64,000 nt of DNA from Alphaproteobacteria bacterium (GCA_964291395.2 OZ219856.1:1568001-1632000), one strand, 5' to 3'; counted from the first letter of the stretch, positions 3,162 to 64,000 are shown. Notes: a model not told the origin generated them from the sequence alone. Translations and numbers: made by a program.

Positions 3162-3170
3162 AACAAAGCA

Positions 3171-9470: not shown

Positions 9471-9493
9471 CAGCCGGTCGAGCCGCGCCCATG

Positions 9494-10128: not shown

Positions 10129-10134
10129 ATGACC

Positions 10135-10163
10135 AGTATTCATGACCGGTCATGCCGTGTCAA
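10135..10163 (-). promoter_or_regulatory. TA operon promoter with a perfect 14-bp palindromic operator
   Basis: Minus strand TTGACA-17 nt-AATACT; catgaccggtcatg (10141-10154) fills the spacer. Confidence 0.7.
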
Positions 10164-11454: not shown

Positions 11455-11522
11455 GCGCCCGCTTGGTGGGCCAGGAAGCGGGTTTACGACGCGCTGCGGC
11501 GTTTCGTTCTCACACCCCGCAT

Positions 11523-30183: not shown

Positions 30184-30209
30184 GATCCCGTTCTCCCTCT
30201 CTTGTCGAT

Positions 30210-31595: not shown

Positions 31596-31629
31596 CCCGC
31601 CATCGTCCTCCCAGGGTCGCGGTCCCGAA

Positions 31630-33897: not shown

Positions 33898-33933
33898 CGT
33901 CTGTCCTGGTTTCGAATTTCGGGTCGGGGATGG

Positions 33934-34374: not shown

Positions 34375-34575
34375 GGTGCAGACGCGCCTCCCGCGCAACT
34401 CCGGGATGTTGATGAAGACCGTGAGACGCCATTGTCGGGGGTCGGCATCGAAGGCGTCAAGCGAACCGGTTGCGCCAGCGGGCACGGTTGACGCGTGGGA
34501 GGCAATACCGTCATCAATGGGCCCGGCCGTGTACCCGATACGGGTGGGAACGAAATCGAGAGGAGGAGGACCGGA

Positions 34576-35196: not shown

Positions 35197-35306
35197 GCAT
35201 ATGCCTGCATACGGCCGCCCCCCGGAAACACGGGTTGCCGGAGAGCGGTCGCGCCTCCGGTCCTTGATCCCGGCTCGCTGCAAGGGCAGCAAGTGACACA
35301 CGGTAC

Positions 35307-36041
35307 GTGATCGACCCCCTCCTCACCCCGGCGTTCGGGTTTTCCGTATTCGCGGTCAGTCTCGGCGGAATCGTCCGGGGATTCTCGGGCGCGGGATCGG
35401 GCCTCATCATGATTCCCTTGATGTCGCTCGTGTACTGGCCGCCCCAGGCATTGACGATGGCCATCATGATCGGGGTCGTCGGCGCGATTCAGCTCGTTCC
35501 CCAGACGATCCGCCATGTCCGCTGGCGCGACGTGGGACCCATGACCGGAACCGCGGCGGTCGCCATTCCCGTCGGCACGGCGTTTCTGTTCATCGTCGAC
35601 CCGGAGATCACCCGGCGCTGCATCGGCGCCATCGTCCTGCTGTCGTCGCTCGTCCTGTTGAGCGGCTGGATCTATCGTGGTCCGCGCAATCCGGTCACCA
35701 GCGCCTCGGCCGGCGTGGTGGCCGGCCTGATGAACGGCTTCGCCGGGGCCGGCAGCGTGATCCCGACGCTCTACTTCGTGGCGAGCCGGGAGCGCGCCGT
35801 CGTCCTCCGCGCCAACATCTTCACGGTGGTCACCCTGTTTCTCGTCATCACGGCGGTCTCGCTGGCGTTCCGGGGAACGGTGACGCGCGAATCGGTCACC
35901 ATCGCCGCGGCACTTCTGATTCCCTACGGATTCACGATCTGGATCGGTTCCCGCCTGTTCCAGCGCTCCACCGACCGTGTCTATCGGTTGGCCGTCCTGT
36001 GGCTTCTCGCCGCCATCGGGGCATTCGTCGCGATCTACTGA
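35307..36041 (+). CDS. TauE/SafE-family membrane protein (sulfite exporter family)
   Basis: GGIVRGFSGAGSGLI repeat motif, about 8 TM segments. Confidence 0.8.
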   Translation: MIDPLLTPAFGFSVFAVSLGGIVRGFSGAGSGLIMIPLMSLVYWPPQALTMAIMIGVVGAIQLVPQTIRHVRWRDVGPMTGTAAVAIPVGTAFLFIVDPEITRRCIGAIVLLSSLVLLSGWIYRGPRNPVTSASAGVVAGLMNGFAGAGSVIPTLYFVASRERAVVLRANIFTVVTLFLVITAVSLAFRGTVTRESVTIAAALLIPYGFTIWIGSRLFQRSTDRVYRLAVLWLLAAIGAFVAIY

Positions 36042-37167: not shown

Positions 37168-37262
37168 CGCCGACGCCCTGGCCCCGATCAATCGAACACG
37201 TATCCCGGGGGCGCCCGCTCAATGGGCTCGGACATTGTCCGGGCGTCCCCCGATGAAGGGCA

Positions 37263-38135
37263 ATGGGTGATGCCATGGATTGGCTGACCACGCAGATCTC
37301 CGATCACAAGATTCCGCTTGGCTCCTGGATCGCCGGTTTCTTCGACTTCCTCATAAACAATTTCGCGACCTTCTTCGACTTGCTATCGGCCCTGCTTGAA
37401 TTCGTCGTAGAAGGCCTGACGACGCTGATGCAGGCGTGCCCGCCTTTGGCCCTGATCGCCTCGGTCGCGGTGTTGGCCTGGTGGCTGCACCGCTCCCTGT
37501 GGCTGGTGCTGGGCATCGCGGCGTTTCTGCTGTTGATCATCAACCAGGGGTACTGGGAGCAGACCCTGGAAACCCTGGCCCTGGTGTTCTTCGCCACCTT
37601 GATCTGCATGCTCATCGGGATTCCGATCGGTATCGCCGCGGCACATCGGCCGTGGCTTTATGCGGTGATCCGGCCGATCCTCGACCTGATGCAGACCATC
37701 CCCACCTTCGTCTACCTCATCCCCACTCTGATCCTGTTCGGGCTCGGCGTAGTGCCGGGACTCATCTCGACGGTGATCTTCGCCATCCCGGCACCCATCC
37801 GGCTGACCTACCTTGGCGTGCACTCGGTACCCCAACAGCTTCTGGAGGCCGGCAAGGCTTTCGGTGCCAACAGGCGGCAACTGCTCTGGAAGGTGGAACT
37901 GCCCCACGCGATGCCGACGATCATGGCCGGCCTGACGCAGGCCATAATGTTGTCCCTCTCCATGGTCGTGATCGCCGCGCTCGTAGGCGCCGACGGCCTG
38001 GGCAAGCCGGTGGTGCGGGCGCTCGGAACCGTCAACATCAAGATGGGCATCGAGGCCGGCCTGGCGATCGTCATCGTCGCCATTCTGCTCGACCGCATCT
38101 GCAAGCATCCCGGCCGGAGACACACGGTCGGCTGA
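37263..38135 (+). CDS. choW: Choline-type ABC transporter permease
   Basis: KIPLG, LDLMQTIPTFVYLIP, EAA-like loop (EAGKAFGA). Confidence 0.9.
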   Translation: MGDAMDWLTTQISDHKIPLGSWIAGFFDFLINNFATFFDLLSALLEFVVEGLTTLMQACPPLALIASVAVLAWWLHRSLWLVLGIAAFLLLIINQGYWEQTLETLALVFFATLICMLIGIPIGIAAAHRPWLYAVIRPILDLMQTIPTFVYLIPTLILFGLGVVPGLISTVIFAIPAPIRLTYLGVHSVPQQLLEAGKAFGANRRQLLWKVELPHAMPTIMAGLTQAIMLSLSMVVIAALVGADGLGKPVVRALGTVNIKMGIEAGLAIVIVAILLDRICKHPGRRHTVG

Positions 38136-38138
38136 ACG

Positions 38139-39332
38139 ATGCCAGCCATCGCTTTCCAGGACGTCGACATCATCTTCGGCAAGGAGACGGACCGGGCACT
38201 TGCACTCCTCGACGCCGGCCGCACGAGGGATCAAATCCTGGAGGAGACCGGCCAGGTGGTCGGAGTCGCGGGCGCAAGCCTGACGGTGGAAACCGGAGAA
38301 GTCTGCGTCATCATGGGGCTCTCGGGCTCCGGCAAGTCAACTCTGGTGCGCTCCGTAAACGGCCTCAATCAGGTGACTCGAGGCCGGGTGCTGGTGCAGG
38401 ACCGGGAGGCGGAGATCGATATCACGTGCTGCGATGCCCAAACCATCCGCCGCCTGAGGACGGAGCGCATCGCCATGGTGTTCCAGCAGTTCGCGCTGCT
38501 GCCCTGGCGCACCGTGGCGGAAAACGTCGGTCTTGGCCTGGAATTGCGGGGCATGCCGCGCCGCGACCGCGCCGCCATCGTCGACCAAAAGCTCTCATTG
38601 GTAGGTCTGGAGCAGTGGCGAGACAAGTACGCCCACGAGCTCTCTGGCGGCATGCAGCAGCGCGTGGGCCTGGCCCGCGCCTTCGCCACCGATGCCGACA
38701 TTCTGCTCATGGACGAGCCGTTCTCCGCCCTTGACCCGCTGATCCGGGAGAAGCTGCAGGACGAGTTGCAGATACTGCAGCGCCGGCTCAAGAAGACGAT
38801 CCTGTTCGTCAGCCACGACCTGGACGAGGCGCTGAAGCTCGGCACCCATATCGCCATCATGGACAGCGGCCGCATCGTCCAGTTCGGCGAACCGGAGAAT
38901 ATCGTATTGCAGCCCGCCAACGAGTATGTGGCCGAGTTCGTTGCCCACATGAATCCGCTGAACGTTCTGCGTGGCGGCTCCCTGATGACGCCGGTGGAAG
39001 CGCTGCGGCGGGAAGATGACGAGGTGCTTCTTGACCGGGACGGCCGCGTCCGCGTGTCTCTGGACCGGAACGGCGCCCCCACGGCGGTCAGCATCGACGG
39101 CCGACCCGCCTCTCTGATGACCCACGACCAAGTCCGCAACGGGGCCGGCGTCGACGGCGCCACCATGGTGACCGCGCCGGCGGCCATGTCCATGCGCACG
39201 GCGATCGAGTTGCGCCGCGCGAGCGGCATACCGGTGGCGGTGCTCGAAGACGGCAGGTTGGCCGGGGTGTGTGGAGATGAGGAGATCTACCGCGGCATCC
39301 TGCGCCAAGCCGGTGGCCCGGCGAGACCATGA
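38139..39332 (+). CDS. choV: Choline-type ABC transporter ATP-binding protein
   Basis: GLSGSGKS, LSGGMQQRVG, MDEPFSALD, HMNPLNVL. Confidence 0.9.
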   Translation: MPAIAFQDVDIIFGKETDRALALLDAGRTRDQILEETGQVVGVAGASLTVETGEVCVIMGLSGSGKSTLVRSVNGLNQVTRGRVLVQDREAEIDITCCDAQTIRRLRTERIAMVFQQFALLPWRTVAENVGLGLELRGMPRRDRAAIVDQKLSLVGLEQWRDKYAHELSGGMQQRVGLARAFATDADILLMDEPFSALDPLIREKLQDELQILQRRLKKTILFVSHDLDEALKLGTHIAIMDSGRIVQFGEPENIVLQPANEYVAEFVAHMNPLNVLRGGSLMTPVEALRREDDEVLLDRDGRVRVSLDRNGAPTAVSIDGRPASLMTHDQVRNGAGVDGATMVTAPAAMSMRTAIELRRASGIPVAVLEDGRLAGVCGDEEIYRGILRQAGGPARP

Positions 39333-40183
39333 GGCGAGCGCTGCTGACTCTCTGCCTCGGTCTCGTGACCGCCAGCGCGGAGGCCCACTACGTCGATCTC
39401 GAACAGGCCCTGATCCGCGATCGCGTCCTGACCTTCGGCCTGGCCCTGGTCGGGGAACCGTTCTCCTACCGGCGCGACGGCACGATCCGGGGATTCGAGG
39501 TGGCGGTGGCCAGGGCGGTCGCCGCAGCCCACGATCTCGAGCTGAGACTGGTTCGGCTGGCACGGGACGAACTGAAGCGGGCACTCGACGACGGACGAGT
39601 CGATGCCGTGAACAGCCTGGCCCTGGCAGCCGAGGACCACACCCTCTCGATTTTGCCTTACCTCAGGGTCGGTGATCACGTGATGATCCTCAAGGGAAAC
39701 CCGTTTCGCATCCGCACGCCCGACGATCTTTCGGGACGGGTGGTCGCCGCGACGTCCGGGTCCAGCGCCGAGATCTATGCCCGCGCGCTCAATGACCGTT
39801 TTCTGACCGCGGGCCGGCCGGCCATGCACATCCACACGTTTCCCGAGCAGCGCCATACCCACTTTCCGGTCTCCATGGGTCACGCCAGCGCCTATTTCGT
39901 GAAGAGCGTCAGCGCCGTCGGTATCAGCCGGGATCCGCACGCGCGCACGCGGTTGCTGCCGGGCGCGTTCCAGCCGCGGCGGGAAGCGGGATTCGCCCTG
40001 AGGCCGGACAACCGCGTGCTGCATCACGCCGTCGAACACGCCGTCGCGGCCATGGTGGCGACCGGCAAGCACGAGCGGCTGATGCGGCAATTCGGGCTGC
40101 CGATCGAGCTGAGCCCGTATCCCCGCGACGGCGACCACCAGAGCGGTCCCGGTTCGGCCGCAACCGTTCCGGCCGAGAAATAG
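39329..40183 (+). CDS. Amino-acid-type (family 3) periplasmic substrate-binding protein
   Basis: Signal peptide, EPFSY..GFEV.VA, L..GRVD; ATGA overlap with choV. Confidence 0.75.
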   Translation: MRRALLTLCLGLVTASAEAHYVDLEQALIRDRVLTFGLALVGEPFSYRRDGTIRGFEVAVARAVAAAHDLELRLVRLARDELKRALDDGRVDAVNSLALAAEDHTLSILPYLRVGDHVMILKGNPFRIRTPDDLSGRVVAATSGSSAEIYARALNDRFLTAGRPAMHIHTFPEQRHTHFPVSMGHASAYFVKSVSAVGISRDPHARTRLLPGAFQPRREAGFALRPDNRVLHHAVEHAVAAMVATGKHERLMRQFGLPIELSPYPRDGDHQSGPGSAATVPAEK

Positions 40184-40263: not shown

Positions 40264-41517
40264 ATGGCGCGAAGAGAGATCGAGGGCGATTGGGTCTTTG
40301 GGTGGCCGGACCGCAAGCGGGCCGAAATCATGCCCAGCAAGGACGTCGAGGGCCGCGTCATCTTCGCCCGCTCTCCGGTGCTCGATCTGGAAGGGATGAT
40401 CACGCCGGTCGATGCCTACTACGTCATCGCCCAACTCGACATGCCGGATCCCATCCATCCCGACGACTACACCTTCTCCGTTTCCGGCGAAGTGGAGAAC
40501 CCGGCGGAGTACGTGCTGGAGGATTTGCGCAAGTTTCCCTCGCGCACCGTCCGCGCGGTGACCGAGTGCGCCGGCAACGACGGTGAGTTCTTCTCGTACA
40601 TGCAGGAAGGCAGCAACATGAAGAAGCCTTCCTTGCGCGTGAAGCAGGACGAGGAAGGCGGCTGGAACCAGATGTCCGACGATGGCGGAATTCCCGACAT
40701 CGAGGACATCCTCGAAGCCATCCCGACGACCTGTCTGGTGAGCGGAGGGGAATGGACGGGCGTACCCCTGCGCGAGGTCCTCAACCGCGCCGGTGTCAAG
40801 GACGGCGCCGTCGCCATCCGAGTCCAGGGCTGGGATACCGGCCGCCCCGATCCGGTCACCCAATACCTGTCGGTCGGCCGGACGGATTTCGAGGTGGTGG
40901 ATCCGGGGATCATCAACTACGACAAGGGCCTTCCCATCGAGAAGGCGATGGACCCGGACACGATCCTCGCCTGGGCCCACAACGGCGAGTACCTGACCCA
41001 CGTGCACGGCGCGCCGCTCCGCATGGTCGTGCCGGGATGGGCCGGGAACTGGTGGGTCAAGTGGATCGAGAAGATCGAGGTCATGGACCACATGCCCGAC
41101 TGCTATTACCAGACTCACTATTTCGTCTCGGGCGATTCACCCGACGATCCCGACAAGAAGCCCATGATGCAGCTTGGGGTGAAGACCCTGATCAAGTACC
41201 CACGCGACGACGACGGTCCCCTGCCCCGCGGCGAGCACGTCATCCGCGGCATGGCCTGGAGCGGCGAAGGCGCCGTCGTGCGGGTCGAGGTGAGCACCGA
41301 CGGGGGCGAAACCTGGAACGACGCCTACGTCGAGGACTCCCGCGACAAGTGGCTGTGGCGCCGCTGGTCCCATGTCTGGGACGCTTCGGAGGCCGGCGAG
41401 TACCGCATCATGGCGCGGGCGACCGACGAGAACGGCCGTGTCCAGCCCCAGACCGGGATGAATTTCCAGCGCAAGCATTTCGACTGGATCGTGCCGGAGG
41501 TGGTGACCGTGGAGTGA
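40264..41517 (+). CDS. Sulfite oxidase-family molybdoenzyme (copy 2), no signal peptide
   Basis: ECAGN, HGAPLRMVVPGWAGNWWVKW, VEVSTDGGETW; collinear paralogue of 4879-6129; AGGAG RBS. Confidence 0.9.
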   Translation: MARREIEGDWVFGWPDRKRAEIMPSKDVEGRVIFARSPVLDLEGMITPVDAYYVIAQLDMPDPIHPDDYTFSVSGEVENPAEYVLEDLRKFPSRTVRAVTECAGNDGEFFSYMQEGSNMKKPSLRVKQDEEGGWNQMSDDGGIPDIEDILEAIPTTCLVSGGEWTGVPLREVLNRAGVKDGAVAIRVQGWDTGRPDPVTQYLSVGRTDFEVVDPGIINYDKGLPIEKAMDPDTILAWAHNGEYLTHVHGAPLRMVVPGWAGNWWVKWIEKIEVMDHMPDCYYQTHYFVSGDSPDDPDKKPMMQLGVKTLIKYPRDDDGPLPRGEHVIRGMAWSGEGAVVRVEVSTDGGETWNDAYVEDSRDKWLWRRWSHVWDASEAGEYRIMARATDENGRVQPQTGMNFQRKHFDWIVPEVVTVE

Positions 41518-41719
41518 CGGTCACCTTCGACGGAGAGGTACGAATTTGGTCCGCGAATCGGGTTGCGCAGGCGGCGAAGATAGATAGTATGTGGTCGGTC
41601 CGATGACCGACACATGCGTTGTCGATCGCTCCCGCGGGGTTCAGGGCGGATATCCGGCCGGTTTCTTCGCCCGCGTACGACGGGTCACAACGGCAACGAA
41701 GGGGAAAGGAAGGCATAAC

Positions 41720-42969
41720 ATGCGAGACGGTTTCAAGAGTGCTCTCAATCGGCTTCAGGTGAGCCGGCGTGACTTCATGCGCGTGGCCGGCCGCTTCGGC
41801 ATGACGTCGACGCTGTTCGGCGCGGCGTCCGTGGCCACCGGCGCCATCACGCTGCCCAAGCTGGCCAGCGCGGCCGAATCCAATTATGAGAAGCGTTTCA
41901 AGAAGGAGCCGAAACACACCCTCAAATTCGGCCCCGACGGCCTCAGCGCGGAGCGTCTTCTGATCCAGCGCTCGGGCGAGTTGTTCTGGTCCCAAGACAT
42001 CGAGGAGCGTACCGACGGCGAAATCCGCATCGAGTTCATCGGCAGCGGCCAGATCTGCAACCAGCTCGATTGCATCAAGAAGTGCCAGCAGGGAATCATC
42101 GACATCTACTCGTCGTCGACCCAGAACGCCGCCGGCTCGGCTCCCTACCTCAACGTTCTCGACTACGCCTACGTGTTCCCGACCCGGGCGTCCCAGTACT
42201 ACTTCTTCTATCACCCGAAGAGCGAGGCAACTGCTTCGCGAGCCCATGCGCCGCATTCACGGCATCGTGTGCCTGCACACCCATGCCGAGCTGCGCAACA
42301 TGATGATGGGCCTGAAGTACAACGACTCCAAGGATCTCACCAAGATCGAGGACCTCTTCGGCACCAAGAACAGGGTGACGGGCACGCAGTTGGGCCGCAT
42401 CGCCATGCAGCTCATGAACCTCAACCCGGTTCCCATCGCCTGGGAGGAGACGCTCGACGGCCTCAAGCAGGGCTTGGTGGACGGCGCCGAGACGTGGTCG
42501 TCGGCTTCGGCGTTCGCCAACATGGGTCCGGTGGTCGCGCAGGACGTGGGACTGGAGTTCTTCTCGGGCAACCACCTCTCGGGGATGCGGATTCAGACGT
42601 ACGAGTCGCTGTCGCCGGAACTGCAGGATGCCGTGATGGAATCCGCCTACACCTCGCAGGTCATGGTCCAGCACGCCAACGAGGCATCGTTGATCAACGT
42701 GGTCGGCGCCTCGTCGCCGCAGCACCCCAACACGCACTATTCGCAGCACAACGTGCGTTTCGTGCCGTTCTCGGCCGAGGAGAAGAAGAAGTGCCAGGAG
42801 CTGTGCTCGCCGGAATTCGTGCCGGAGCCGTGGGAGAAGTGGCGCAATCGGATCAACAAATGGGCGAAGGGCCTGGATACCTACACGGAGGTCTTCAATA
42901 TCGCCCGCGAGATCCCGGAAACGATGCTGGCGGAGCACGTCGAGCCCCGGCGTTGGTGGAAGAAGCTAG
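41720..42969 (+). CDS. dctP: TRAP transporter substrate-binding protein with Tat signal; frameshifted near 42227, 3' end uncertain
   Basis: SRRDFMR twin-arginine, IEERTDGEIRIE, PIAWEETLDGLKQGLVDGAE; two frames joined by removing one G in gaggca. Confidence 0.82.
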
Positions 42970-42985
42970 TCCGTTCGATTAAGGT

Positions 42986-43005
42986 GCGGGGGCCGTCGCC
43001 CCCGC
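42986..43005 (+). terminator. GC stem-loop after dctP (terminator or mRNA-stabilising hairpin)
   Basis: gcggggg-ccgtcg-cccccgc. Confidence 0.45.
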
Positions 43006-43069
43006 GCCTTCATTTCCCATCAGGATTCTACGGCGGGTCGGCAAGGCTCCGCCTAACCATCTGGAGTTG

Positions 43070-43604
43070 ATGATGGCCCCGTTGCTTGCGGCGCTGCGCT
43101 GGATCGACCAGAACCTGGAGAAGTGGATTATCCTCGCGGCCTACATGACCATGGGCGGGATAATCTTCGTCGAGGTTATCCGCCGCTTCGCGTTCTCGCT
43201 TCAGGCGCCCTGGAGCACCTCCGTTCCCGTATACCTCTTTCTCTGGGTGACGTGGCTCGGCTGCGCCTACAACGTCAAGATCCGCACCCACCTGAGCTTC
43301 GACGAGCTGCGGCTCAGGATGCCCTACAATGCCCAGTTCCTCTGCCTGATCCTCGACGCGGTCTGCTGGATCGTGTTCTCGCTGATCGTGGTCTACTTCA
43401 CGATCGAACAGGTCCAGGTCGTGCACATGAACTTCGCCATCGTGCAGGGCACCGACGACATCATGCAGTGGTGGTTCTACATCCATCACCCCGATCGCCT
43501 GGGCGCTGATCATCTACCGTTCCCTGGAGAACCTCTGGCAGGACTACCAGCAGTTCCAGCGCAAGGAGCCCTTCCAGATCGTCCACTCCATACTGGGCGA
43601 CTGA
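43070..43604 (+). CDS. dctQ: TRAP transporter small permease; frameshifted near 43484
   Basis: EVIRRF..APWS..YLFLWVTWLG..HL; removing one C restores a C-terminal helix and a stop at 43604 before the dctM RBS. Confidence 0.82.
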
Positions 43605-43618
43605 GGGAGGACGACGTC

Positions 43619-44955
43619 ATGGATGCACTGCTCGTCACCCTCGTCAGCGCTGGTATCATGGTGCTGTTCGTACTGGGCGTACCCATCATTCTGATCATCG
43701 GCCTGTGGACCGCCGGCGTCAGCCTCGTCATCGACTTCACGCTCTCGAACATCGGCGTCACGCTGTTCGAGGGGGTGAACTTCTACGGCCTGCTCGCCCT
43801 GCCCCTGTTCATCCTGACCGGCGACTTCATCAACGCCTCCGGCATCGCCAAGAAGCTGACCGACTTCGCCTACTCGGCGCTCGGCTGGCTGCGCGGCAGC
43901 CTGGCGATGGCCACGATCGGTGCCTGCGGCCTGTTCGCCGCCATCTCGGGGTCCAACTCGGCCACCACGGCGGCGATCGGCTCGATCATGTACCCCGAGC
44001 TCAAGAAGGGCGGCTACGACGAGAATTTCGCCGCGGCAACCTCGGCCGCGGGCGGTACCGTGGGCATCATCATCCCGCCCAGCATCGTGTTCATCATCTA
44101 CGGCTTCCTGATGCACCTGTCGATCAGCGACCTGTTCATCGGCGGCCTGCTGCCGGGCGTCCTGATGGTCATGGCGATGATGGTCGCGTGCTGGGGCGTC
44201 TGCACCTTCAAGAAGTGGGGCCAGCTCATCGAGTTCGACATCAGGCGCATCGCGCGCGATACCGTGGGCGCCTACCTCGGCTTCATCGCCATCTTCATCA
44301 TCATCTTCGGCATCTACTCGGGGACCTTCTCGCCGACCGAGGCCGCGGGGATCACCGCGGGCTACTGTCTGTTCTCCGGCCTCTTCATCACGCGGCAGAT
44401 GAAGTGGAAGAACCTGCCCGCCGTGATCATGCGGTCGGGACAGATCACCGGCCTGCTGGCGCCGTTGATCGCCATCTCGATCGTCATGCAGCAGGTGCTC
44501 TCGTTGCTGGGCGCGCGGGATTTCGTGTCCGAGATGATCAGCGGATTGGGCGGCTACTACCCGGTCCTGTTCGCCTGCATGTTCTTCGTGCTGGCGGCGG
44601 GGACCTTCCTGGAGAGCGTCCCCAACACGATCATCCTGGCCCCCATCCTGGCGCCGATCGCGGCGGGGATCGGGGTCGACCCGATCCACTTCGCGGTCAT
44701 ATTCCTGGTCGGCGACGCGATCGGCTTCATCACGCCGCCTTACGGGCTCAACCTGTACGTGGCAAGCGGTATCACCGGCATCCCGTACTTCCGATTATTG
44801 AAGTTCGTGATGCCGTACCTGCTTGCCCTGCTCATAGCGTGGATGTTCATCGCCTGATCCCCGAGCTCTCCACCTATCTCGTGGAACTGGGCGTCCAAGG
44901 CGCCGGGGTCAGGGGTACGGGCGGGGGCGAGGCGGGCTCGTTCGGCCAGCAGTGA
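43619..44955 (+). CDS. dctM: TRAP transporter large permease; frameshifted near 44854
   Basis: LLALPLFIL, AISGS, GIIIPPSI, FSPTEAA, ITPPYGLNLYV; tail LIPELSTYL continues in another frame. Confidence 0.9.
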
Positions 44956-45089
44956 CCATGGGTTGACCGCTCGACCGGAGGCCGGCGGGGTGCGTGCGCC
45001 CCGCCGGATCCATCCCGCACCGCGCGGATTCGCGCTCGCAAACGTCGTCCAGATGCGCTAAATCACGTGTCAGGAAATGGAGGGTTCCG

Positions 45090-46325
45090 ATGGCTCGAAA
45101 CGCGAAGCAATGGAACGCGCATCCCGATCCCAGCCGGATCGAGTGGGCGGACAGCCGAATCTACAGCGACGAGGAGATCTTCGAGGAAGAGCTGGAGAAG
45201 ATCTGGAAAAAGGTCTGGATTCCGGTCTGCCACGAATCCGAACTTCCGGAACCTTACGACTTCCGGACCATGTCGATCGCGCGGGAGCCGGTAATCGTCT
45301 GCCGCGACGCGGACGACAAGATCCGGGCCTTCCTCAACGTCTGCCCGCACCGGGCCAACCTGATCGAGCGCCGGCCCTCCGGCAGCTTCAAGGAAGGCAC
45401 GCCGTCCGGCAACCCGAAGAACATGACCTGCATGTTCCATGCCTGGCAGTTCGACATGAAGGGCCGCTGCGTGCACATCTCCCGCGGCGAGGAAGGCTAT
45501 CAGGACCGGCTGTCGCCCAAGGACGTGGGCCTGCGCCGCCTACGCTGCGAAGTGGCCTTCGGCGGGATGGTCTGGGTGACGCTCCACGATCACATCGAGC
45601 AGAGCGTTCAAGAGTGGGTGGGCAGCGCGCTCGACTGCATTCTCGAGCCCATCGAGGCCGAGCCCCTGGAGATCTTCCACTACCACAAGTCGGTCATCCC
45701 CTCGAACTACAAACTGTGGCACGACACGAACAGCGAGTTCTATCACGACTTCGTCCACTACCATAACCGCGTCACGGGCTTCAACGACGCCTATTTCGCC
45801 CGCAAGAACATGACCTTCGACAACGGTCACGTCGTCGTCGGCTCCTTCGAGGTGCAGTACGACCAGTACGAGGGGTTCGAGTCCCGTGAAGCGCTCAGCT
45901 TCCCGACCCTGCCGCCGAACAACTGGTACATGATCGATATCTTCCCGGGCATCAACTACAACCTCCGCGGCTCGGCCCTGCGCGTCGATCTGATGACGCC
46001 GTTGTCCGCCAACGAGGTCATGATCGAGTTCCGCGGCCTCGGTCTCAAGAAGGACACGGAAGAAGAGCGCCTTACGCGCGTCCGGCACCACAACACCATC
46101 TGGGGTCCGATGGGCCGGAACCTGCACGAGGACCTCCTCAGCATTACGGGTCAGGGCGTGACCATGCGTCCGGGGACGGAGCCCCGGCACATTTTGCACG
46201 GGCGTCACGAGAACGAGACGATCCACGACGAAGTCGGGATGCGCCACTACTACGACGAATGGTCCCGCTGGATGGGCAGGCCCTTGCACAATCCGACCAA
46301 CCGTCCCGCCGTGGCGGCCGAGTAG
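45090..46325 (+). CDS. msmA: Methanesulfonate monooxygenase hydroxylase alpha subunit
   Basis: Rieske motif CPH-X26-CMFH (26-residue spacer counted; known MsmA signature), NYKLWHDTNSEFYHDFVH. Confidence 0.87.
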   Translation: MARNAKQWNAHPDPSRIEWADSRIYSDEEIFEEELEKIWKKVWIPVCHESELPEPYDFRTMSIAREPVIVCRDADDKIRAFLNVCPHRANLIERRPSGSFKEGTPSGNPKNMTCMFHAWQFDMKGRCVHISRGEEGYQDRLSPKDVGLRRLRCEVAFGGMVWVTLHDHIEQSVQEWVGSALDCILEPIEAEPLEIFHYHKSVIPSNYKLWHDTNSEFYHDFVHYHNRVTGFNDAYFARKNMTFDNGHVVVGSFEVQYDQYEGFESREALSFPTLPPNNWYMIDIFPGINYNLRGSALRVDLMTPLSANEVMIEFRGLGLKKDTEEERLTRVRHHNTIWGPMGRNLHEDLLSITGQGVTMRPGTEPRHILHGRHENETIHDEVGMRHYYDEWSRWMGRPLHNPTNRPAVAAE

Positions 46326-46340
46326 CCGCGTATCCCGCCG

Positions 46341-46841
46341 ATGGCCATGGCAAAGCGCAGCGCCGCCGTCGAGGCGGTGAAGGACACCGTCTACCGCACC
46401 TGCCTGCTGCAGGATGACGAGCGTTGGTCGGATTGGCTCGAACTCTGCGACGAGGAGTTCCACTACAAGATCACGGCCTACAGCCCCGAGATCCGCAGGG
46501 ACGTGCTCTATCTCGACGGGGACCGAGGGCAGATCGCGCAGATGTGCGAGCTGTTGCCCAAGCACAATACCGACCACTCGCCGCTCAAGCGTCACGCGGT
46601 CGTCTATACGGTCGACATCGACGACGACGGCGGATCGGCCAAGGCCGTGACGTCGTTCGTGATCTATCAGAACATGCTCGACGGCGTAAATTCGCACATC
46701 GACGCCGGCGAGAATCACCTGTTCGCGGTCGGGCGTTACCTCGACAGTTTCGCGATCAGGGATGACGAGGCCCGATTCGTCGCCCGCGAGGTTCGCCTCG
46801 AGACGCGGCGCCTCGACAAGGGAACCCACTGGCCTCTCTAG
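46341..46841 (+). CDS. msmB: Methanesulfonate monooxygenase hydroxylase beta subunit
   Basis: NTF2-like beta subunit (YKITAYSPEIR, LPKHNTD, V.LETRRL) directly after msmA. Confidence 0.82.
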   Translation: MAMAKRSAAVEAVKDTVYRTCLLQDDERWSDWLELCDEEFHYKITAYSPEIRRDVLYLDGDRGQIAQMCELLPKHNTDHSPLKRHAVVYTVDIDDDGGSAKAVTSFVIYQNMLDGVNSHIDAGENHLFAVGRYLDSFAIRDDEARFVAREVRLETRRLDKGTHWPL

Positions 46842-46868
46842 CGCCCTCCCCTCCCTGGAGCCATCGCC

Positions 46869-47243
46869 ATGACATGGAAACGGGTCTGCGCGACCGGTGA
46901 CGTCGCCGAGAACGGTCTCAAGCTGTTCGACGTCGACGGCATCTCCATCCTCATCGTCAACCACGGCGGCGACTTCAAGGCGATTCCTCCGCTCTGCCCG
47001 CACATGGAGGAACCGCTCGCACAGTCGGGCATCTGCGACGGCAAGGTCCTCACCTGCACCAAGCATCTGTGGCAGTGGGACCTTGCGACCAACGAACCCC
47101 AGGCGGAGACGGAAAAGCCCCTGCTGATGTACGACCTCAGAGTCGCGGTCGACGACATCGAGGTCTTCGTGGAACAAGAACTCGAATACGAGTTCGACGA
47201 GGACGACGATTACGACGACGACGACTCGTTCTGGGATGACTGA
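46869..47243 (+). CDS. msmC: Rieske ferredoxin with acidic tail
   Basis: CPH-X17-CTKH; position after msmAB. Confidence 0.82.
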   Translation: MTWKRVCATGDVAENGLKLFDVDGISILIVNHGGDFKAIPPLCPHMEEPLAQSGICDGKVLTCTKHLWQWDLATNEPQAETEKPLLMYDLRVAVDDIEVFVEQELEYEFDEDDDYDDDDSFWDD

Positions 47244-47436
47244 GGCCTCTGATCGGGAGCAAAGGGCGCGTTCCGTTCCGTGGCCTCCCTCCCGTTCTCC
47301 CAATTCGTAAAAATTTACTGAATTGGTGACCTCATGTTGGCGCACGCTACATGGTTGGTATAACATAATAAAGGCGCGGGCCAGCGGCGCGGGCAACGCC
47401 GACCGCCGCCAACGAGACCACGACAGGGGAGAGGCC

Positions 47437-49551
47437 ATGTGGAACGTTCTTGAACCCGGCACGGCCGGGCCGCTGTCCCGGCGGGAAACCGTCTCGAAAC
47501 CGGTTCGCGGCTCCCTGGTCCTGGCGGCGAGCGCCCTCGCCCTCACCGGACTCCTGCAGGCGCCTCCCGCGCAGGCGGTCGAGTTCGGCATCGGCGAGCT
47601 AAGGGGGAGCCTGGATACCACCATCTCGCACGGCGCGACCATCCGCGTCGGCAGGCGCAGCGACATTCTGGCGGCCGGCGCCAACGACAACGACGGCAAC
47701 CTCAACTACGACCGCGGCGTCGTCAGCAACACCTCCAAGTTCACCAGCGATCTCGACCTCGAGATAGGCAACTTCGGCGCCTTCGCCCGCGTCACCGGGT
47801 TCTTCGACTTCGAGAACGAGAACAACGAGCGGGAGCGCACCCCGTTGAGCGACGAGGCGATGGATCGGGTGGGGAAAGACATCGACGTGCTCGACCTTTA
47901 CGCCACCGGCGCGTTCGAGGTCGGCGGCGCGGCGCTCGATCTGCGGCTCGGCAGACACGTGCTCAACTGGGGCGAGAGCACCTTCATCCAGAACGGCATA
48001 AACGCCATCAACCCGTTCGACGTGAGCAGGCTGCGCACGCCGGGCTCGGAACTGCGCGAAGCGCTGCTGCCGGTCTCGATGTTCTCGGCCTCGGTGGCGC
48101 CGACCGACACTCTGTCGGTGGAAGGCTTCTATCAGCTCGCCTGGGAGGAGACCGAGATCGACCCGGTCGGCAGCTTCTTCTCGGTCACCGACTATGTCGG
48201 CCCTGGCGCGACGAGGGCGGTGATTCCGTTATCCGACGGCGTGAACGACGAGGGATGGATTTGGGCCTCACGCCGGCTATCAATGCCGACCTCGCCGGTT
48301 TCGGCGTCAACGTCCCGGGGGGCGGGCTCGTCCCCATGCCGCAACCGCTTCAGCCGGACTTCGATGCCGGCTTCCTGAACGTGATACGCGCCTCGGACCG
48401 GGACCCCGGCGACTCGGGCCAGTGGGGAGTGGCGCTTCGTCACTTCGCCGAGGACCTGAACGCCACCGAGTTCGGCTTCTATTTCATCAATTACCATAGC
48501 CGCCTGCCGATCGTCAGCGCACGCACCGGCAGCCTGCGGAACGCAAGGTGCCGGTCTATTCGCGGCCCAGGCCGTGAGTGCGCGGATTCCCGCCACCGTC
48601 GGGGCGGTGACCCAGGCAGTGACAGGAGCGGTTACTCCGGCGGTGACCGCAGCGGTAACCCAGAGTGTCACAGCGACGCCTCCAGGAATCGCGGCGATCC
48701 CGCCGCCGCCCAGGGCACATCGCACGCGGAAGTGCGTCGGCCAGGTAACCGAGCAGGTGGCCACTCGGGTGTCCGCACAAGTTGAGGGCCGCCGGGCCTC
48801 GCGGTCGACCGCTACGCGAAGACGGGCACTACTTCATCGAGTATCCCGAGGACATCCAGCTTTTCGGCCTGAGCTTCAACACCCTGCTCGGGGCCTCGGG
48901 CTGGGCGTTGCAGGGCGAGTACTCCTTCCGCCCCGATACGCAGCTGCAGAGAGCCGAACGACGCCCTGTTCGCGGACGGCCTCGCACCCATAAGGACGGC
49001 CTTGTCACTCGCCAGCAGCGATCCGGCAGCCCTCGGTAACGTCCTCTCCACCTACGCGCCATCACAGGGTTCAGGGCTACGTCGAGCGCGACGTGAGTCA
49101 GGCGCAGGCCACCGCCACGAAGGTGTTCGGCCCCACGTTCGGCGCCGACGGCATGGCGTTCGTGACGGAAGTCGCCCTGATGCACGTGCACGGCATGCCA
49201 GACAAGAATGCGACGCCCCTGGAGAGCCCGGCCGGAGGCAGACTTGAGGACACCGAGGCGGACGCCGACGCCACCTCCTGGGGCTACCGGCTGGCGGCAC
49301 GGCTCGACTACAACAACGCGATCGGGGCGGCGAACCTGTTCCCGTATCTCCAGTTCGGACACGACGTGGGCGGCAACAGCCCCGCGCCGATCGGCTCGTT
49401 CGTGGAGGGCCGGACCGCGTTGACCCTCGGACTGCGCGCCGATTATCTCAACCGCTGGGAGGCCGGCATCGGCTATACGCGGTACGGGGGCAAGGGCACC
49501 GAGCGGAGCGACCGCGACTTCGTCTCCGCCTCCGTCAGGTACTCGTTCTGA
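47437..49551 (+). CDS. DUF1302-family outer-membrane protein (AupA-like); multiple frameshifts between 48255 and 49075
   Basis: Signal peptide, NDNDGNLNY, WGESTFIQNGIN.INPFD, YFIEYPEDI.LFGLSFN, DRDFVSASVRYSF terminal Phe. Confidence 0.85.
48604..48675 (+). repeat. Six degenerate 12-bp tandem units encoding AVTx
   Basis: gcggtgacccag/gcagtgacagga/gcggttactccg/gcggtgaccgca/gcggtaacccag/agtgtcacagcg. Confidence 0.8.
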
Positions 49552-49563: not shown

Positions 49564-50943
49564 ATGAACGTCATGAATCCCGTGAAAGCAACCACCCTTC
49601 GATCCGGCGTCGCATTCGCCCTCGGCTGCGCCGTCGCCTTCCCCGCCGCGGCCGAGATCGGCGCCGACGAGATCGCGCGGCTCGGCCGCGACCTGACCCC
49701 GCTCGGAGGAGAGCGGGCGGGCAACGCCGACGGGACCATCCCCGAATGGACCGGCGGCATCACCGAGCCGCCGCCCGGCTATGTCCTCGGCGAGCATCAC
49801 CGCGATCCCTATGCCGGTGACCGGCCGCTCTTCGTCATCAACGCGGCCAACCTCGACGAGCATCGCGACCGGCTCTCGGTCGGGCACCAGCGCATGCTGG
49901 AGACCTATCCGACCTTCGAAATGCCGGTCTATCCGACCCGGCGCAGCGCCTCCGCCCCCCAACGGATCTACGACGCCACCCGGAGAATCGCCGCCACCGC
50001 GAAGCTCGTGGACGACGGCAACGGCGTCGGCGGCGCGGCGGTCGGCATCCCGTTCCCGATCCCGGGCAACGGCCTGGAGGTGATCTGGAACCATCTGCTG
50101 CGCTACCGGGGAGAGGCGGTGGAATGCGTCATCGGCCAGGCCGCGGTGACCCGCGGCGGCGCCTACACCATGGTCAAGTACGGCCTCGAGATCGAGCTGC
50201 GCTACTCGCTGCCGGACATGACCCCGGAACGGCTCGGCAACACGATGATCCTGTTCAAGCAGAAGGTGCTGGCTCCGGCGCGCCTCGCAGGCGACCTCCT
50301 GCTGGTGCACGAGACCATGAACCAGGTCCGCGAACCCCGCAACGCCTGGGTCTACAATCCCGGCCAGCGCCGGGTGCGGCGCGCTCCGAACGTCGCCTAT
50401 GACAACCCGGGCACCACGTCGGACGGGCTTCGCACCGCCGATCAGTTCGACATGTTCAACGGCGCGGTCGACCGCTACGACTGGCGGATCGTCGGCAAGC
50501 GCGAGATGTACGTGCCTTACAACTCCTACAAGCTCCACAGCGGCGATCTCGCCTTCGCCGACATCCTCACCCCCCTGCACGTCAATCCGGAGCATCTGCG
50601 CTACGAACTGCACCGGGTCTGGGTGGTGGAGGCGACGCTCAAGGAGGGCGCGCGTCACATCTACAAGCGGCGCACCCTGTACGTGGACGAGGATGCCTGG
50701 CAGATCCTGCTCGCGGACATCTACGACAACCGCGATCAGCTCTGGCGGGTGTCGGAAGGCCACGTCATCAACTACTACGAGAAGCCGCTGATCTGGCCGA
50801 CCCTCGAGGTGCATGTCGATCTCCAGGCGGGACGCTATCTCGCCCTCGGGCTCGACAACGAGTTTCCGATGTGCACCTACGATGCCGATTTCACCCCGAG
50901 GGACTTCACGCCGGCCGCCCTGCGCCGCGAGGGCCGGCGATGA
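49564..50943 (+). CDS. DUF1329-family protein (AupB-like)
   Basis: LTPLGGERAGNADGTIPEWTGG, YPTRRS, YNPGQRRVRRAP, RYELHRVWVVEA. Confidence 0.92.
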   Translation: MNVMNPVKATTLRSGVAFALGCAVAFPAAAEIGADEIARLGRDLTPLGGERAGNADGTIPEWTGGITEPPPGYVLGEHHRDPYAGDRPLFVINAANLDEHRDRLSVGHQRMLETYPTFEMPVYPTRRSASAPQRIYDATRRIAATAKLVDDGNGVGGAAVGIPFPIPGNGLEVIWNHLLRYRGEAVECVIGQAAVTRGGAYTMVKYGLEIELRYSLPDMTPERLGNTMILFKQKVLAPARLAGDLLLVHETMNQVREPRNAWVYNPGQRRVRRAPNVAYDNPGTTSDGLRTADQFDMFNGAVDRYDWRIVGKREMYVPYNSYKLHSGDLAFADILTPLHVNPEHLRYELHRVWVVEATLKEGARHIYKRRTLYVDEDAWQILLADIYDNRDQLWRVSEGHVINYYEKPLIWPTLEVHVDLQAGRYLALGLDNEFPMCTYDADFTPRDFTPAALRREGRR

Positions 50944-59824: not shown

Positions 59825-60729
59825 AGATCGGTACCGTCGGCATCGGCGCCATGGGAGCACCCATGGCCCGGAACCTCGCCCAGGGCGGCGATTCCGTTCT
59901 CGCATTCGATGTCGCCCCCGAGAAGGTGGACGCGATCGCCGGCAACGGTGTCGAACGGGCCGGGGCCGTGGCCGATATAGCGCGAGAGTGCGAGCTGATC
60001 GTCCTGATGACCCCGGACGACAAGGCGCTGCGCGACGTCATGCTGGGAGACGGCGGAATCCTGTCCGTCGGGTCGTTCTCCGGGTGCGTCGTCGACCTCA
60101 GCACCACGTCCGAGAATCTCGCCCGCGAGATCGGCGCGGCGGCCGCCGCGCAGGGGGTGGGATACCTCGACGGCGCCGTCATCGGCGGCAGCGTCGCGGC
60201 CGCGCGCAACGCGGCGTCACCGGTCGTCGTCTCGGGCGACGAGGCCTTGCTCGAGCGCTACCGGCACGTGCTCGAACGTCTCGGCTCGGTCGACTATGCC
60301 GGCGTCCAGGGCAACGCGAAAATCGTGAAGATCTGCAATAACCTGCTGCTCGGCATGCACACGGTGTCGGGAGCCGAAGCGCTGTCCGTCGGAGAAGCCG
60401 CGGGGCTTGCGCTTGAAGACATGGTCGCCTGGCTCGACGTGAGCTCCGGCAACACCGCGGCGATGCAGGTGATGTTCGGGTATTTCGTCGAGCACGGTAC
60501 GTTTCCCGAAGGAAACGCCTCGTTCAAATTCTTCGACAAGGACATGGCGCTCGGTTGTGCGCTGGCCGAACGCCAAGATTACCCGGCGTCCCTGGCCCTG
60601 CTGACGCGCGAGCTGCTCGCGACCGCCGCCCAGATGGAAGGAGCCGGTGCCCCTTTCGCTTCGGTCCTCGCCTATTACCGGACCATGCAGCGCGCCGTCG
60701 CCGGGGGCGACAAACCGTCGTCCGCCTGA
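59821..60729 (+). CDS. NAD(P)-dependent beta-hydroxyacid dehydrogenase family protein
   Basis: GIGAMGAPMA, LDGAVIGG, VKICNN; ATGA overlap. Confidence 0.88.
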   Translation: MKIGTVGIGAMGAPMARNLAQGGDSVLAFDVAPEKVDAIAGNGVERAGAVADIARECELIVLMTPDDKALRDVMLGDGGILSVGSFSGCVVDLSTTSENLAREIGAAAAAQGVGYLDGAVIGGSVAAARNAASPVVVSGDEALLERYRHVLERLGSVDYAGVQGNAKIVKICNNLLLGMHTVSGAEALSVGEAAGLALEDMVAWLDVSSGNTAAMQVMFGYFVEHGTFPEGNASFKFFDKDMALGCALAERQDYPASLALLTRELLATAAQMEGAGAPFASVLAYYRTMQRAVAGGDKPSSA

Positions 60730-60790
60730 GGCGTCTCCGGCGCGCGGGCGCGATCATTCCGACGAAGCGGGAGACTTCCGCGGGGGAGAC

Positions 60791-61654
60791 ATGGCCGAGG
60801 AAAAACGCCGCAAGGTCACGCTCAACCACATCCGCGGCAAGAAGGAACGCGGCGAACGTATCACCTCGATCGGCGTCTACGACGCCCCGATGGCGGCGAT
60901 CGCCGACCGGGTCGGCTTCGATCTCCTGATCAACGGCAATGCCGGCCCCATGTCCCTGCTAGGCCACCCGGACCCCACCACCGTCACGTTCGAGGAGCAG
61001 CTCTTCCTCACCAAGGCCGTGAGCCGGGTCACGGAGTACGGCTTCGTCGTGGGGCACCTCCCGTTTCTCACCTATCACGCCTCCAAGGAGCAGGCGATCG
61101 TCAACTCCGGCCGCATGATCAGCGAAGGCGGCGCCGATTCGGTCAAGTTCGAGGGCAACAAGTACACCGCCGAATACGTGGCGGAGGTCGTTCGCGCCGG
61201 CATCCCGGTGATGGGCCATATCGGCATGCAGGCATCACGCCGTTCGGAACAAAGCGGGTTCGGCATCAAGGGCCGCACATCGGAGGACGCCGCCGAGATC
61301 GTCGAAGGCGCACGCGCCTTCGTCGAGGCCGGCGCCTGGGGCTTCATTCTGGAGCAGGTGCCGACGGAACTCGCGGCGTTCCTGACCGAGGACCTACCGG
61401 TGCCGGTCATCACCCTGGGCGGCGGCCGGGTCAACGACGGGGTCTATCACATCAGCGGAGACGTCGTAGGCTACAGTGCCTTCCCCATTCCCAGGAACCG
61501 CGGCGCCTACGCGGACGTCGGCAGCGTCATGGAGGACGCGCTGCGCCGCTACCGGGACGAATCGGCCGCCGGCAGCTATCCGCCGGAAGAGAACACCTTC
61601 CACATGCAGCCCGCGGAACACGAGAAATTCCTCGCCCTGGTGGCGAAGAAGTGA
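60791..61654 (+). CDS. Divergent PanB (ketopantoate hydroxymethyltransferase)-family protein
   Basis: YDAPMA, LPFLTY, VKFEG, GIPVMGHIG, ILEQVP; canonical GDS and DxPF motifs altered. Confidence 0.85.
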   Translation: MAEEKRRKVTLNHIRGKKERGERITSIGVYDAPMAAIADRVGFDLLINGNAGPMSLLGHPDPTTVTFEEQLFLTKAVSRVTEYGFVVGHLPFLTYHASKEQAIVNSGRMISEGGADSVKFEGNKYTAEYVAEVVRAGIPVMGHIGMQASRRSEQSGFGIKGRTSEDAAEIVEGARAFVEAGAWGFILEQVPTELAAFLTEDLPVPVITLGGGRVNDGVYHISGDVVGYSAFPIPRNRGAYADVGSVMEDALRRYRDESAAGSYPPEENTFHMQPAEHEKFLALVAKK

Positions 61655-63459: not shown

Positions 63460-63888
63460 CTACGGATAAACGATGCCGTGCCGCCCGTCCCCGAAGCTCG
63501 GCACCGTATCGGAAACGACCCCGTAGTCCGCCGCATCGTCGACGTGAATGTTCGCGGCAAACTCCAGTCCCGACGGCTGATCGATCGTGCCCGCCGCGAT
63601 CCCTATCGTGGAGCTGTCGTCGGGATCGAAGAACAGGCTGGCGCCGCACCTGGCGCAAAATCCGCGTCGGGCCTTCTCGGACGACCGGTACCAGGCGAGG
63701 CAGCCGTCGTCCTCGATGGTCAGATCCTCGCGCACGGCCCGGGTCGCCTGCCAAACGGCGCCGACGGCGCGGCGGCACATCTCGCAGTGGCACTGGAGGA
63801 GTTGGCGCCGGACGGCGCTCGCCTTGTAGCGGACACCGCCGCAAAGGCAGTGCCCGGAAACATTCTTGACGGCATTGGAGTTCGGCAT
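63460..63888 (-). CDS. GFA (CENP-V/glutathione-dependent formaldehyde-activating) family protein
   Basis: GHCLCG, CHCEMCRR, RGFCARCG zinc motifs. Confidence 0.88.
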   Translation of the reverse strand: MPNSNAVKNVSGHCLCGGVRYKASAVRRQLLQCHCEMCRRAVGAVWQATRAVREDLTIEDDGCLAWYRSSEKARRGFCARCGASLFFDPDDSSTIGIAAGTIDQPSGLEFAANIHVDDAADYGVVSDTVPSFGDGRHGIVYP

Positions 63889-64000
63889 GACGGGCCTCCG
63901 GTTCACATGGGAATTTCCCGGACCACGGCAAATTTGAACCCTTCGCGACGATGCCGCAAGAGACCGCCAAACGGGGCCACGTATGAGGGTTGGCGCCAGC

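Follow-up and report, generated by a model that had tools for sequence, protein, structure and literature searches.

Methanesulfonic acid (MSA, or methanesulfonate) is a major product of the atmospheric oxidation of dimethylsulfide, and msmA and msmE serve as marker genes for its breakdown by bacteria. We analyzed a stretch of 64,000 nucleotides from an Alphaproteobacteria bacterium (GCA_964291395.2 OZ219856.1:1568001-1632000; the whole stretch is called the window here), in which positions 40264-47243 hold an MSA monooxygenase locus. Pfam scans placed on the plus strand, in this order, a gene for a molybdoenzyme (the Mo enzyme), the genes dctP (with a twin-arginine translocation [Tat] leader), dctQ, and dctM of a tripartite ATP-independent periplasmic (TRAP) importer, then msmA, msmB, msmC, and a DUF1302 gene (Table 1). 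A preliminary description of this DNA had proposed the same order and a common orientation, and the Pfam domains, the intergenic gaps, and the msmA motif agree with it. Its gap of about 200 nt before dctP is also there, with 202 nt between the Mo gene and the dctP ATG at 41720. Two of its statements held only in part. The order of the TRAP and msm genes is correct, but the TRAP genes are not intact, each carrying a 1-nt insertion or deletion (indel) relative to its relatives; a DUF1302 gene does lie 3' of msmC, starting at 47323 on the plus strand, but it is split between frames.

TABLE 1 Features of the locus and its surroundings, numbered from the first nucleotide of the window
Feature	Position	Strand	Basis and remarks
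TauE/SafE-family sulfite exporter	35268..36041	+	PF01925 E 2e-22; start codon uncertain; conserved upstream member of the island
Choline-type ABC transporter and SBP_bac_3 protein	36226-40183	+	choX/W/V models above cut-offs; between TauE and Mo gene
Mo enzyme, 417 aa	40264..41517	+	PF00174 (Oxidored_molyb) and PF03404 (Mo-co_dimer)
dctP, TRAP solute-binding protein with Tat leader	41720..43070	+	Pfam DctP match split over two frames
dctQ, TRAP small membrane subunit	43067..43603	+	Pfam DctQ, residues 30-139
dctM, TRAP large permease	43619..44955	+	Pfam DctM 2.8e-91; TIGR00786 315 bits against a cut-off of 268
msmA, MSA monooxygenase hydroxylase alpha subunit, intact	45090..46325	+	Homology and CPH-X26-CMFH
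msmB, hydroxylase beta subunit, intact	46341..46841	+	Pfam Ring_hydroxyl_B/SnoaL_4
msmC, Rieske-type [2Fe-2S] ferredoxin, 124 aa, intact, acidic C-terminal tail	46869..47243	+	Pfam Rieske
DUF1302 gene, split	47323-49548	+	Profile positions 2-266 in 47311-48375 and 383-541 in 48994-49548; middle in other frames
DUF1329 partner of DUF1302, intact	49564-50943
PanB-like hydroxymethyltransferase	60605..61654	+	PF02548; recurrent msm neighbor, putative C1 handling
Glutathione-dependent formaldehyde-activating enzyme (GFA)	63463..63999	-	PF04828; conserved neighbor

Many proteins named "methanesulfonate monooxygenase large subunit" by JGI share about 70% identity with MsmA; its identity to the listed matches is 68-75%, except for one cluster, P0002, at 93%. 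The preliminary description had read a CxH-X26-CxxH motif in msmA, and we confirmed it as C85-P-H87 and C114-M-F-H117, a Rieske motif with a 26-residue spacer that is invariant in an alignment of 14 sequences (A1). CXH-X26-CXXH is given as the MsmA signature in the literature (PMC4433239). The NCBIfam anthranilate and benzoate dioxygenase models matched MsmA far below their cut-offs. Gaps of 15 nt and 27 nt separate msmA from msmB and msmB from msmC. We consider the identification of msmABC sound because of the identity of MsmA and the 26-residue Rieske spacer. Judged from its sequence, MsmAB is the hydroxylase of an ordinary MSA monooxygenase and forms the catalytic core together with the Rieske ferredoxin MsmC, and the identity of MsmA predicts that MsmAB converts MSA to formaldehyde and sulfite.

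We scanned one genome per species and kept the best 80 of 581 MsmA relatives, which gave 79 loci with at most 10 kb on each side. The window proteins, together with MsmD and MsmE of Filomicrobium insigne (L038), were mapped onto all 79. Five loci (L001 to L005), all from uncultured Alphaproteobacteria and with MsmA 94-98% identical, have the pattern of the window: a Mo gene and msmABC, no MsmD and no MsmE, with at least 9.0 kb of sequence after msmC in each. In these five the Mo enzyme is 84-91% identical, and MsmB is 86-88% identical, compared with 52-70% for the product of the gene after msmA in ordinary loci. A gene for the sulfite exporter TauE (78-79% identity) lies upstream of the Mo gene in L001 to L004; the L005 contig begins inside the Mo gene. 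The TRAP genes stand between the Mo gene and msmA in four of the five (L001 to L004), and in L005, which has no TRAP gene there, 85 nt lie between the end of the Mo gene and msmA. Only about 420-600 bases separate TauE from the Mo gene in L001 to L003, where the window has the choline-type ATP-binding cassette (ABC) transporter genes.

The other 74 loci, referred to here as ordinary, gave a different picture, and TauE-Mo...msmABC without msmD was found in none of them. MsmC was present in 71, and the three loci without it end shortly after msmB. Sixty-nine ordinary loci extend at least 1300 nt beyond msmC, and MsmD follows msmC directly in 68 of these; a script that looked for MsmD within 2.5 kb counted 67, and L037, which it had missed due to a second MsmC-like hit, was added. 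The exception is L023 (13708-14949, minus strand), where a Pyr_redox_2+Reductase_C reductase lies 1.4 kb from msmC. This reductase is of the glutathione-reductase type (GR-type) instead of FNR-type, so reductases do get swapped. MsmE was found in 54 of the 74 ordinary loci and in neither the window nor L001 to L005. Thus, the preliminary description was right to call this a variant architecture: the pattern lacking msmD and msmEFGH recurs in all five close relatives and in 0/74 other loci.

The core proteins themselves have changed little. Of the 197 MsmA columns with 95% or higher conservation in 75 ordinary rows, 191 are kept in the variant clade, only 6 differ in all six variant-clade rows, and the changes are mostly conservative. 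In variant MsmC, 28 of 29 conserved columns are retained. The six variant rows group together as a single clade in the MsmA tree (SH-aLRT 100), on the longest internal branch, 0.34. We rejected the acidic MsmC tail as an adaptation to a new electron donor, since MsmC of ordinary loci has a tail too. A new substrate for variant MsmA (neofunctionalization) was rejected as unsupported, with 6 of 197 columns changed, though the stem branch is long.

In Pfam scans of the window (14 + 54 + 7 candidate open reading frames [ORFs]), neither a Fer2/FAD_binding_6/NAD_binding_1 protein nor a Pyr_redox_2+Reductase_C (GR-type) protein came up. A tblastn search with three MsmD proteins and one GR-type reductase against the window and the five closest loci returned only two chance-level matches (25-26 bits, E<=1). 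These scans support the earlier claim that the window has no FAD/NADH ferredoxin reductase. Neither the 64-kb window nor L001 to L005 has the combination of Fer2, FAD_binding_6, and NAD_binding_1 by which we recognized MsmD. The sole flavoprotein-like gene in the window encodes a PF12831 FAD oxidoreductase (20767-22308, minus strand). An ORF with a MOSC hit (33937-35322, minus strand) was considered as a hidden reductase and rejected, as the real gene encodes a small MOSC-only protein (33937-34380, minus strand).

The window also encodes a second Rieske oxygenase alpha subunit (30213-31682, minus strand), which has no linked ferredoxin or reductase gene. Its row (29416-34380, minus strand) includes a short-chain dehydrogenase/reductase, a DUF3604 protein (31633-33933), and the MOSC-domain protein (about 33937-34380). 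A Rieske oxygenase near a molybdenum-cofactor-type protein is seen twice in one window.

The TRAP domains DctP, DctQ, and DctM (PF03480, PF04290, and PF06808) lie in adjacent genes, and the dctP leader has the twin-arginine motif SRRDFMRVAG. Each of the three genes in the window has a 1-nt indel compared with four of four intact relatives (L001 to L004). dctP has an extra G (+1) at about 42226 in an alignment with the four intact relatives (A3); the intact L001 DctP matches PF03480 at 4.8e-24. In dctQ, an extra base (+1) at about 43481 costs the gene its last ~40 codons and joins what is left to the dctM frame (A2), which accounts for the one 596-codon dctQ-dctM ORF of the window. The dctQ of the relatives reads ...WWFYSITPIAWALIIYRSLENLW...ILGD followed by a stop, and the window attains such a reading only in another frame. 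One C is missing from dctM at about 44853 (-1, CCC to CC), leading to a stop at 44855-44857 and the loss of 33 C-terminal codons (A7). Uninterrupted reading frames of the TRAP genes are thus found in L001 to L004 and not in the window. A simple model of frame states, based on GC by codon position, detected the switches in dctP (at 42226/42227) and dctQ; nowhere else in the 64 kb did it show a switch of frame inside a gene that lacked a gene boundary. The neighboring DUF1302 gene shows two or more further frame shifts and three or more frame segments. The Mo, msmA, msmB, and msmC genes align end to end with their relatives.

Either the importer is decaying in this organism or the assembly is locally faulty. 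We give about an even chance to the reading that the island is a decaying remnant, in which the TRAP importer has been inactivated by the three frameshifts and msmABC and the Mo gene are being lost or serve an internal substrate only. The three independent 1-nt indels against 4/4 intact relatives, the two or more in DUF1302, and the lack of any other unexplained in-gene frame switch in 64 kb all point this way. Since the indels are concentrated in two transport-related units, the pattern fits gene decay better than random error; Mo, msmA, msmB, and msmC are full-length, and such clustering is unlike random sequencing error. Transposases and toxin-antitoxin genes also mark the window as a plastic region. 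However, two of the three indels (G to GG and CCC to CC) alter the length of a homopolymer, as assembly errors typically do. Moreover, constraint is evident on msmABC and the Mo gene, which are intact.

DctP comes from a rare subfamily, of which 31 representatives among 1.84 billion reached E<=1e-30. PDB matches of DctP include 8t9t (isethionate) and 24gc (2,3-dihydroxypropane-1-sulfonate [DHPS]), and the Arg of its ...KNRVTG... stretch aligns with an Arg of 4x8r that we take to be ligand binding. Our literature search found no paper combining "methanesulfonate" and "TRAP transporter." Other importer genes accompany msmA elsewhere: a gene for a major facilitator superfamily (MFS) transporter related to that of the Methylobacterium nodulans plasmid pMNOD01 was found in 13 of the 79 loci (e.g., L014, L022, L046, L017, and L024). 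Since an MFS gene accompanies msmA in many loci without msmE, importer type varies widely among msm loci. L080 likewise has an MFS transporter gene by msmA (5351-6655, minus strand).

The N terminus of the Mo enzyme, MARREIEGDWVFGW, is conserved in its relatives and has no signal peptide. The start, M-A/T-RREIEGDWVFGWPDRKRA, is kept in L001 to L004. Because the start is conserved, the sequence further upstream is not, and only 16 open codons lie there, we conclude that the enzyme has no export signal; the conserved, leaderless N terminus is in line with the cytoplasmic location first proposed for it. The CxxCH motif was found in none of the 56 candidate ORFs of the window, and with no signal peptide and no CxxCH ORF the electron acceptor of the enzyme must be cytoplasmic. 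SoxC (2xts) and SorA (2blf) are nearest by sequence, and a model of the enzyme (mean pLDDT, 82.5) superposes on SorA 2blf with TM scores of 0.64/0.71. The Mo enzyme is thus predicted to be a cytoplasmic molybdoenzyme of the sulfite-oxidase fold, from an uncharacterized subfamily and without a cytochrome partner.

Its family extends well beyond this locus. At least 120 clusters at >=59% identity belong to it, compared with only one listed cluster above 75% for variant-type MsmA. A paralogue in the window, Mo2, is 61% identical, also lacks a signal, and lies far from any msm gene (4879-6129, minus strand). Because the family is large and has a paralogue outside the msm context, its function is not specific to MSA monooxygenase. 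Mo2 is accompanied by a minus-strand row of genes for an Amidohydro_2 protein (6290-7543), a GntR regulator (7652-8491), and a cupin (8590-9342) with a weak, below-cut-off match to cysteine dioxygenase (E 7.7e-4); the row as a whole may be a second cytoplasmic sulfur-oxidation module. Searches for further context gave little. All 401 records of a plasmid search with the Mo protein were below 60% identity (listed matches, 30-35%) and offered no annotated context for the subfamily, and the ESM Atlas returned generic sulfite-oxidase-family clusters only. Among longer proteins there were seven matches, all at most 34% identical and with rhodanese/beta-lactamase or plant nitrate-reductase domains, and as fused forms none of them is informative for this subfamily.

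Genes of the sulfite-oxidase family also occur in 15 of the 74 ordinary loci. Fourteen of the 15 products match the twin-arginine pattern, some of their starts being uncertain, and all 15 genes are followed by an ORF with CxxCH; they are periplasmic pairs of the SoxCD/SorAB type, like those described for Filomicrobium sp. Y and annotated on pMNOD01. Because ordinary msmABCD loci carry TauE and such an enzyme too, the pair serves sulfite disposal alongside MsmD, and a Mo neighbor does not imply that msmD has been replaced.

We judge it somewhat better than an even chance that the locus is a lineage-specific, rearranged MSA island of an uncultured Alphaproteobacteria clade, with a TRAP importer and with the reductase of MsmC encoded in trans. 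On this reading, MSA would enter by the TRAP system, TRAP receptors for other sulfonates being known, and MsmC would take its electrons from a conventional flavoprotein reductase that depends on NAD(P)H and has its gene elsewhere in the genome; the candidates are an msmD outside the island or a reductase that also serves other Rieske oxygenases. Cytoplasmic sulfite from the cleavage would be disposed of by the Mo enzyme, by TauE, or by both, a job that TauE and a periplasmic SoxCD/SorAB pair would do in ordinary msm loci. Formaldehyde would pass to the neighboring GFA, glutathione S-transferase (GST), and PanB-like functions. Genes for these three are recurrent neighbors of msm genes; a GFA gene is near msmC in L003 and L005 as well, and a PanB-like gene lies directly 3' of msmC in L003. 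A gene of the PanB-like family is also listed for the Filomicrobium fragment (PMC4433239, Table 1). The split operons of strain TR3 (described below), L023, the second Rieske oxygenase without a linked reductase, and the little-altered MsmA and MsmC lend indirect support and suggest, by analogy, a reductase in trans. The locus is new as a variant of the known MSA system, not as a new kind of system.

The preliminary description had offered another model, in which the Mo enzyme oxidizes sulfite or a precursor (methanesulfinate) and passes the two electrons to MsmC, replacing MsmD and making the cycle NADH independent. We regard this as very improbable. The Mo enzyme would then represent an uncharacterized family of cytoplasmic S(IV) dehydrogenases, with a net reaction CH3SO3- + O2 -> HCHO + sulfate, which we hold to be just as improbable; if true, MSA cleavage would need neither MsmD nor NAD(P)H. 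In favor of the model, the potential of the sulfite/sulfate couple lies far below that of Rieske-type ferredoxins; the missing signal peptide and the lack of CxxCH in the 56 window ORFs also count for it. The Mo gene is linked to msmABC in all five variant loci and abuts msmA in L005, and the variant clade is the only one among the 79 loci without any linked reductase. The stoichiometry also fits, two electrons per S(IV) oxidized against two per turnover (PMC4433239).

The evidence against electron transfer from the Mo enzyme to MsmC is broader. The Mo family reaches far beyond the variant msm clade, and the neighbors of its paralogue in the window are genes for an amidohydrolase, a GntR regulator, and a cupin, without a ferredoxin among them. 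Ordinary loci retain MsmD alongside TauE and a Mo enzyme, MsmC has not been remodeled (28/29 conserved columns), and no fused Mo-ferredoxin or Mo-Rieske form was among the seven matches to longer proteins. Known enzymes of the sulfite-oxidase fold donate to high-potential acceptors, e.g., cytochrome c or O2. The family also lacks the sulfite-binding residues of the studied enzymes, as detailed below. The co-occurrence proposed as a check on the model is real, in that the Mo gene is linked to msmABC without msmD in 5/5 relatives, but it has a single origin in one clade and so counts as one event. The swapping or unlinking of reductases has precedents in L023 and in strain TR3 (PMC4433239). Nothing shows that the Mo enzyme replaces the reductase.

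Several points weigh against the island with its reductase in trans. The loss of a linked msmD is exceptional, seen in 1/69 ordinary loci and there with another reductase nearby, so that "in trans" is an assumption and not an observation; the reductase gene of the clade is assumed, and MSA as the ligand of the TRAP binding protein is predicted, both by analogy. Because the variant rows form a single clade, the pattern is one evolutionary event and its co-occurrences are not independent. Should the three indels be real, the importer of this organism is nonfunctional. The remaining points concern sulfite as the substrate of the Mo enzyme. We compared a family alignment of 118 members (the two copies in the window and 116 of 120 listed matches, four outside 400-430 aa having been dropped) with the 15 sulfite-oxidase-family genes near ordinary msm loci. 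The Mo-binding Cys is invariant in both sets (Cys102 in 118/118 family rows). However, the active-site Arg55 (SorA numbering, as for His57) is in none of the 118 family rows, compared with 15/15 SoxC/SorA-type rows; the column is Val or Ile in 107 of the 118, and Ile in the window protein. PDB entry 2ca3 is titled as the R55M mutant of SorA. His57, present in 14/15 SoxC/SorA-type rows, is Gln in all 118, including the window protein, and the basic positions 281 and 286 (Arg/Lys) are Tyr. Asp106, which adjoins the Mo-binding Cys, and His246 are invariant (118/118), and His248 is present in 117/118. Every curated sulfite-dehydrogenase model failed, with NCBIfam SoxC, SorA, and SorT scores of 193, 183, and 151 bits against cut-offs of 420, 600, and 570. 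Because Arg55, His57, and residues 281 and 286 are replaced and the curated models missed the enzyme, sulfite may not be its substrate. The family appears from the alignment to be without the residues that bind sulfite in studied enzymes, and it has a specific insertion of about 34-45 residues at roughly residues 111-157.

These active-site changes led us to weigh a further alternative, in which the Mo enzyme acts in the cytoplasm on another sulfur compound of the pathway, e.g., methanesulfinate, which it would oxidize to methanesulfonate, and the msmABC reductase is again in trans. We consider this unlikely, and somewhat likelier than electron donation to MsmC. It would explain the replaced residues of the anion pocket (column 55 never Arg, Tyr at 281 and 286, and invariant Gln57, Asp106, and His246), the insertion at about 111-157, and the failure of all curated sulfite-dehydrogenase models. 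The cupin of the Mo2 operon weakly resembles cysteine dioxygenase, a sulfinate-making type of enzyme, and genes resembling flavin-containing monooxygenases (FMO-like) lie upstream in L002 and L003. The substrate is purely predicted, however, and the cupin match is weak. The conserved neighbor TauE is named a sulfite exporter, and in ordinary loci the equivalent position is held by sulfite- or sulfane-oxidizing enzymes.

Some observations on the surroundings stand apart from these questions. Promoter, terminator, and Rfam scans of the region gave nothing above chance. Mobile elements are plentiful in the first 12 kb of the window, a plastic region with a DDE_3 transposase fragment (1898-2488, minus strand), a helix-turn-helix (HTH) and HipA-like pair (3147-4776, plus strand), a Phd/YefM-type antitoxin pair (9500-10149, minus strand), and a Mutator-family transposase (10209-11444, plus strand). 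L002 (3876-6703) and L004 (4347-6729) share a segment of 2.4-2.8 kb, with about 80% identity, that lies between the Mo gene and dctP. The window, L001, and L003 lack it; its G+C is lower in L002 (47-57%), and no Pfam family matched its ORFs of 190-419 codons. The FMO-like genes lie just upstream of TauE, at 1-1491 (minus strand) in L002 and, two in tandem, at 717-3675 (minus strand) in L003. Among the ordinary loci, L010 has two MsmD-like genes in tandem (10832-13556), and L009 has msmABCD followed by a second msmAB pair (2593-9880), recalling the duplicated operons of strain TR3.

The variant clade bears on how MSA degraders are recognized. It shows that msmD is not a reliable marker, and its rare DctP-type TRAP system is a concrete candidate for an alternative importer. 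A study of marine enrichments found msmA without msmE and concluded that other MSA importers must exist (PMC5068391). The Mo enzyme also points to a large, unstudied family of cytoplasmic enzymes with the sulfite-oxidase fold and a rebuilt active site, for which the msm context offers a first handle on substrate and electron acceptor.

Among known proteins, the Mo enzyme resembles SorAB, SorT, SoxCD, and the heme-free sulfite oxidases of plants and Deinococcus in its Mo and dimerization domains, its Mo-binding Cys, and its fold, and like plant sulfite oxidase it has no heme domain. Its identity to such enzymes is 21-27% in structural alignments and 30-35% by tblastn; it differs in being cytoplasmic, in the replacement of Arg55 and His57 of SorA, and in the extra 34-45 residues. 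SorA, SorT, and SoxC are exported by Tat and have a c-type cytochrome partner, whereas the Mo enzyme has neither and its next gene is dctP. The window DctP belongs to the same family as the isethionate-binding DctP (8t9t) and the TRAP receptor for DHPS (24gc), which are receptors for small sulfonates; the similarity is distant (E 1e-7 to 1e-9), and the window DctP is about 415 aa long rather than about 330 and of a rare subfamily.

Among whole systems, Methylosulfonomonas methylovora M2 and Filomicrobium sp. Y have msmABCD and msmEFGH (PMC4433239). The window shares with them MsmA with the 26-residue spacer, MsmB, and MsmC in the same order, and with Filomicrobium sp. Y a nearby TauE and sulfite-oxidase-family enzyme; it differs in lacking msmD and msmEFGH, in its upstream TRAP genes, and in a Mo enzyme without Tat leader or cytochrome c partner. 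The cultured MSA degrader Marinosulfonomonas methylotropha TR3 has separate msmABC and msmABD operons (PMC4433239). It thus resembles the window in having an msmABC unit without msmD, but it carries its reductase on a second msm operon. L023, from a metagenome-assembled genome of Magnetovibrio sp., also has msmABC without an FNR-type msmD; unlike the window, it has the GR-type ferredoxin reductase near msmC and keeps msmE. In pMNOD01 of M. nodulans the order is MFS, msmA, msmB, msmC, an msmD-like 2Fe-2S gene, TauE, a Mo oxidoreductase, and cytochrome c. This plasmid keeps the reductase, and its Mo enzyme has an FFVRYHL motif and is followed by the cytochrome c gene, unlike that of the window. 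Both, however, have a non-ABC importer beside msmA and both have TauE and a Mo enzyme in the island.

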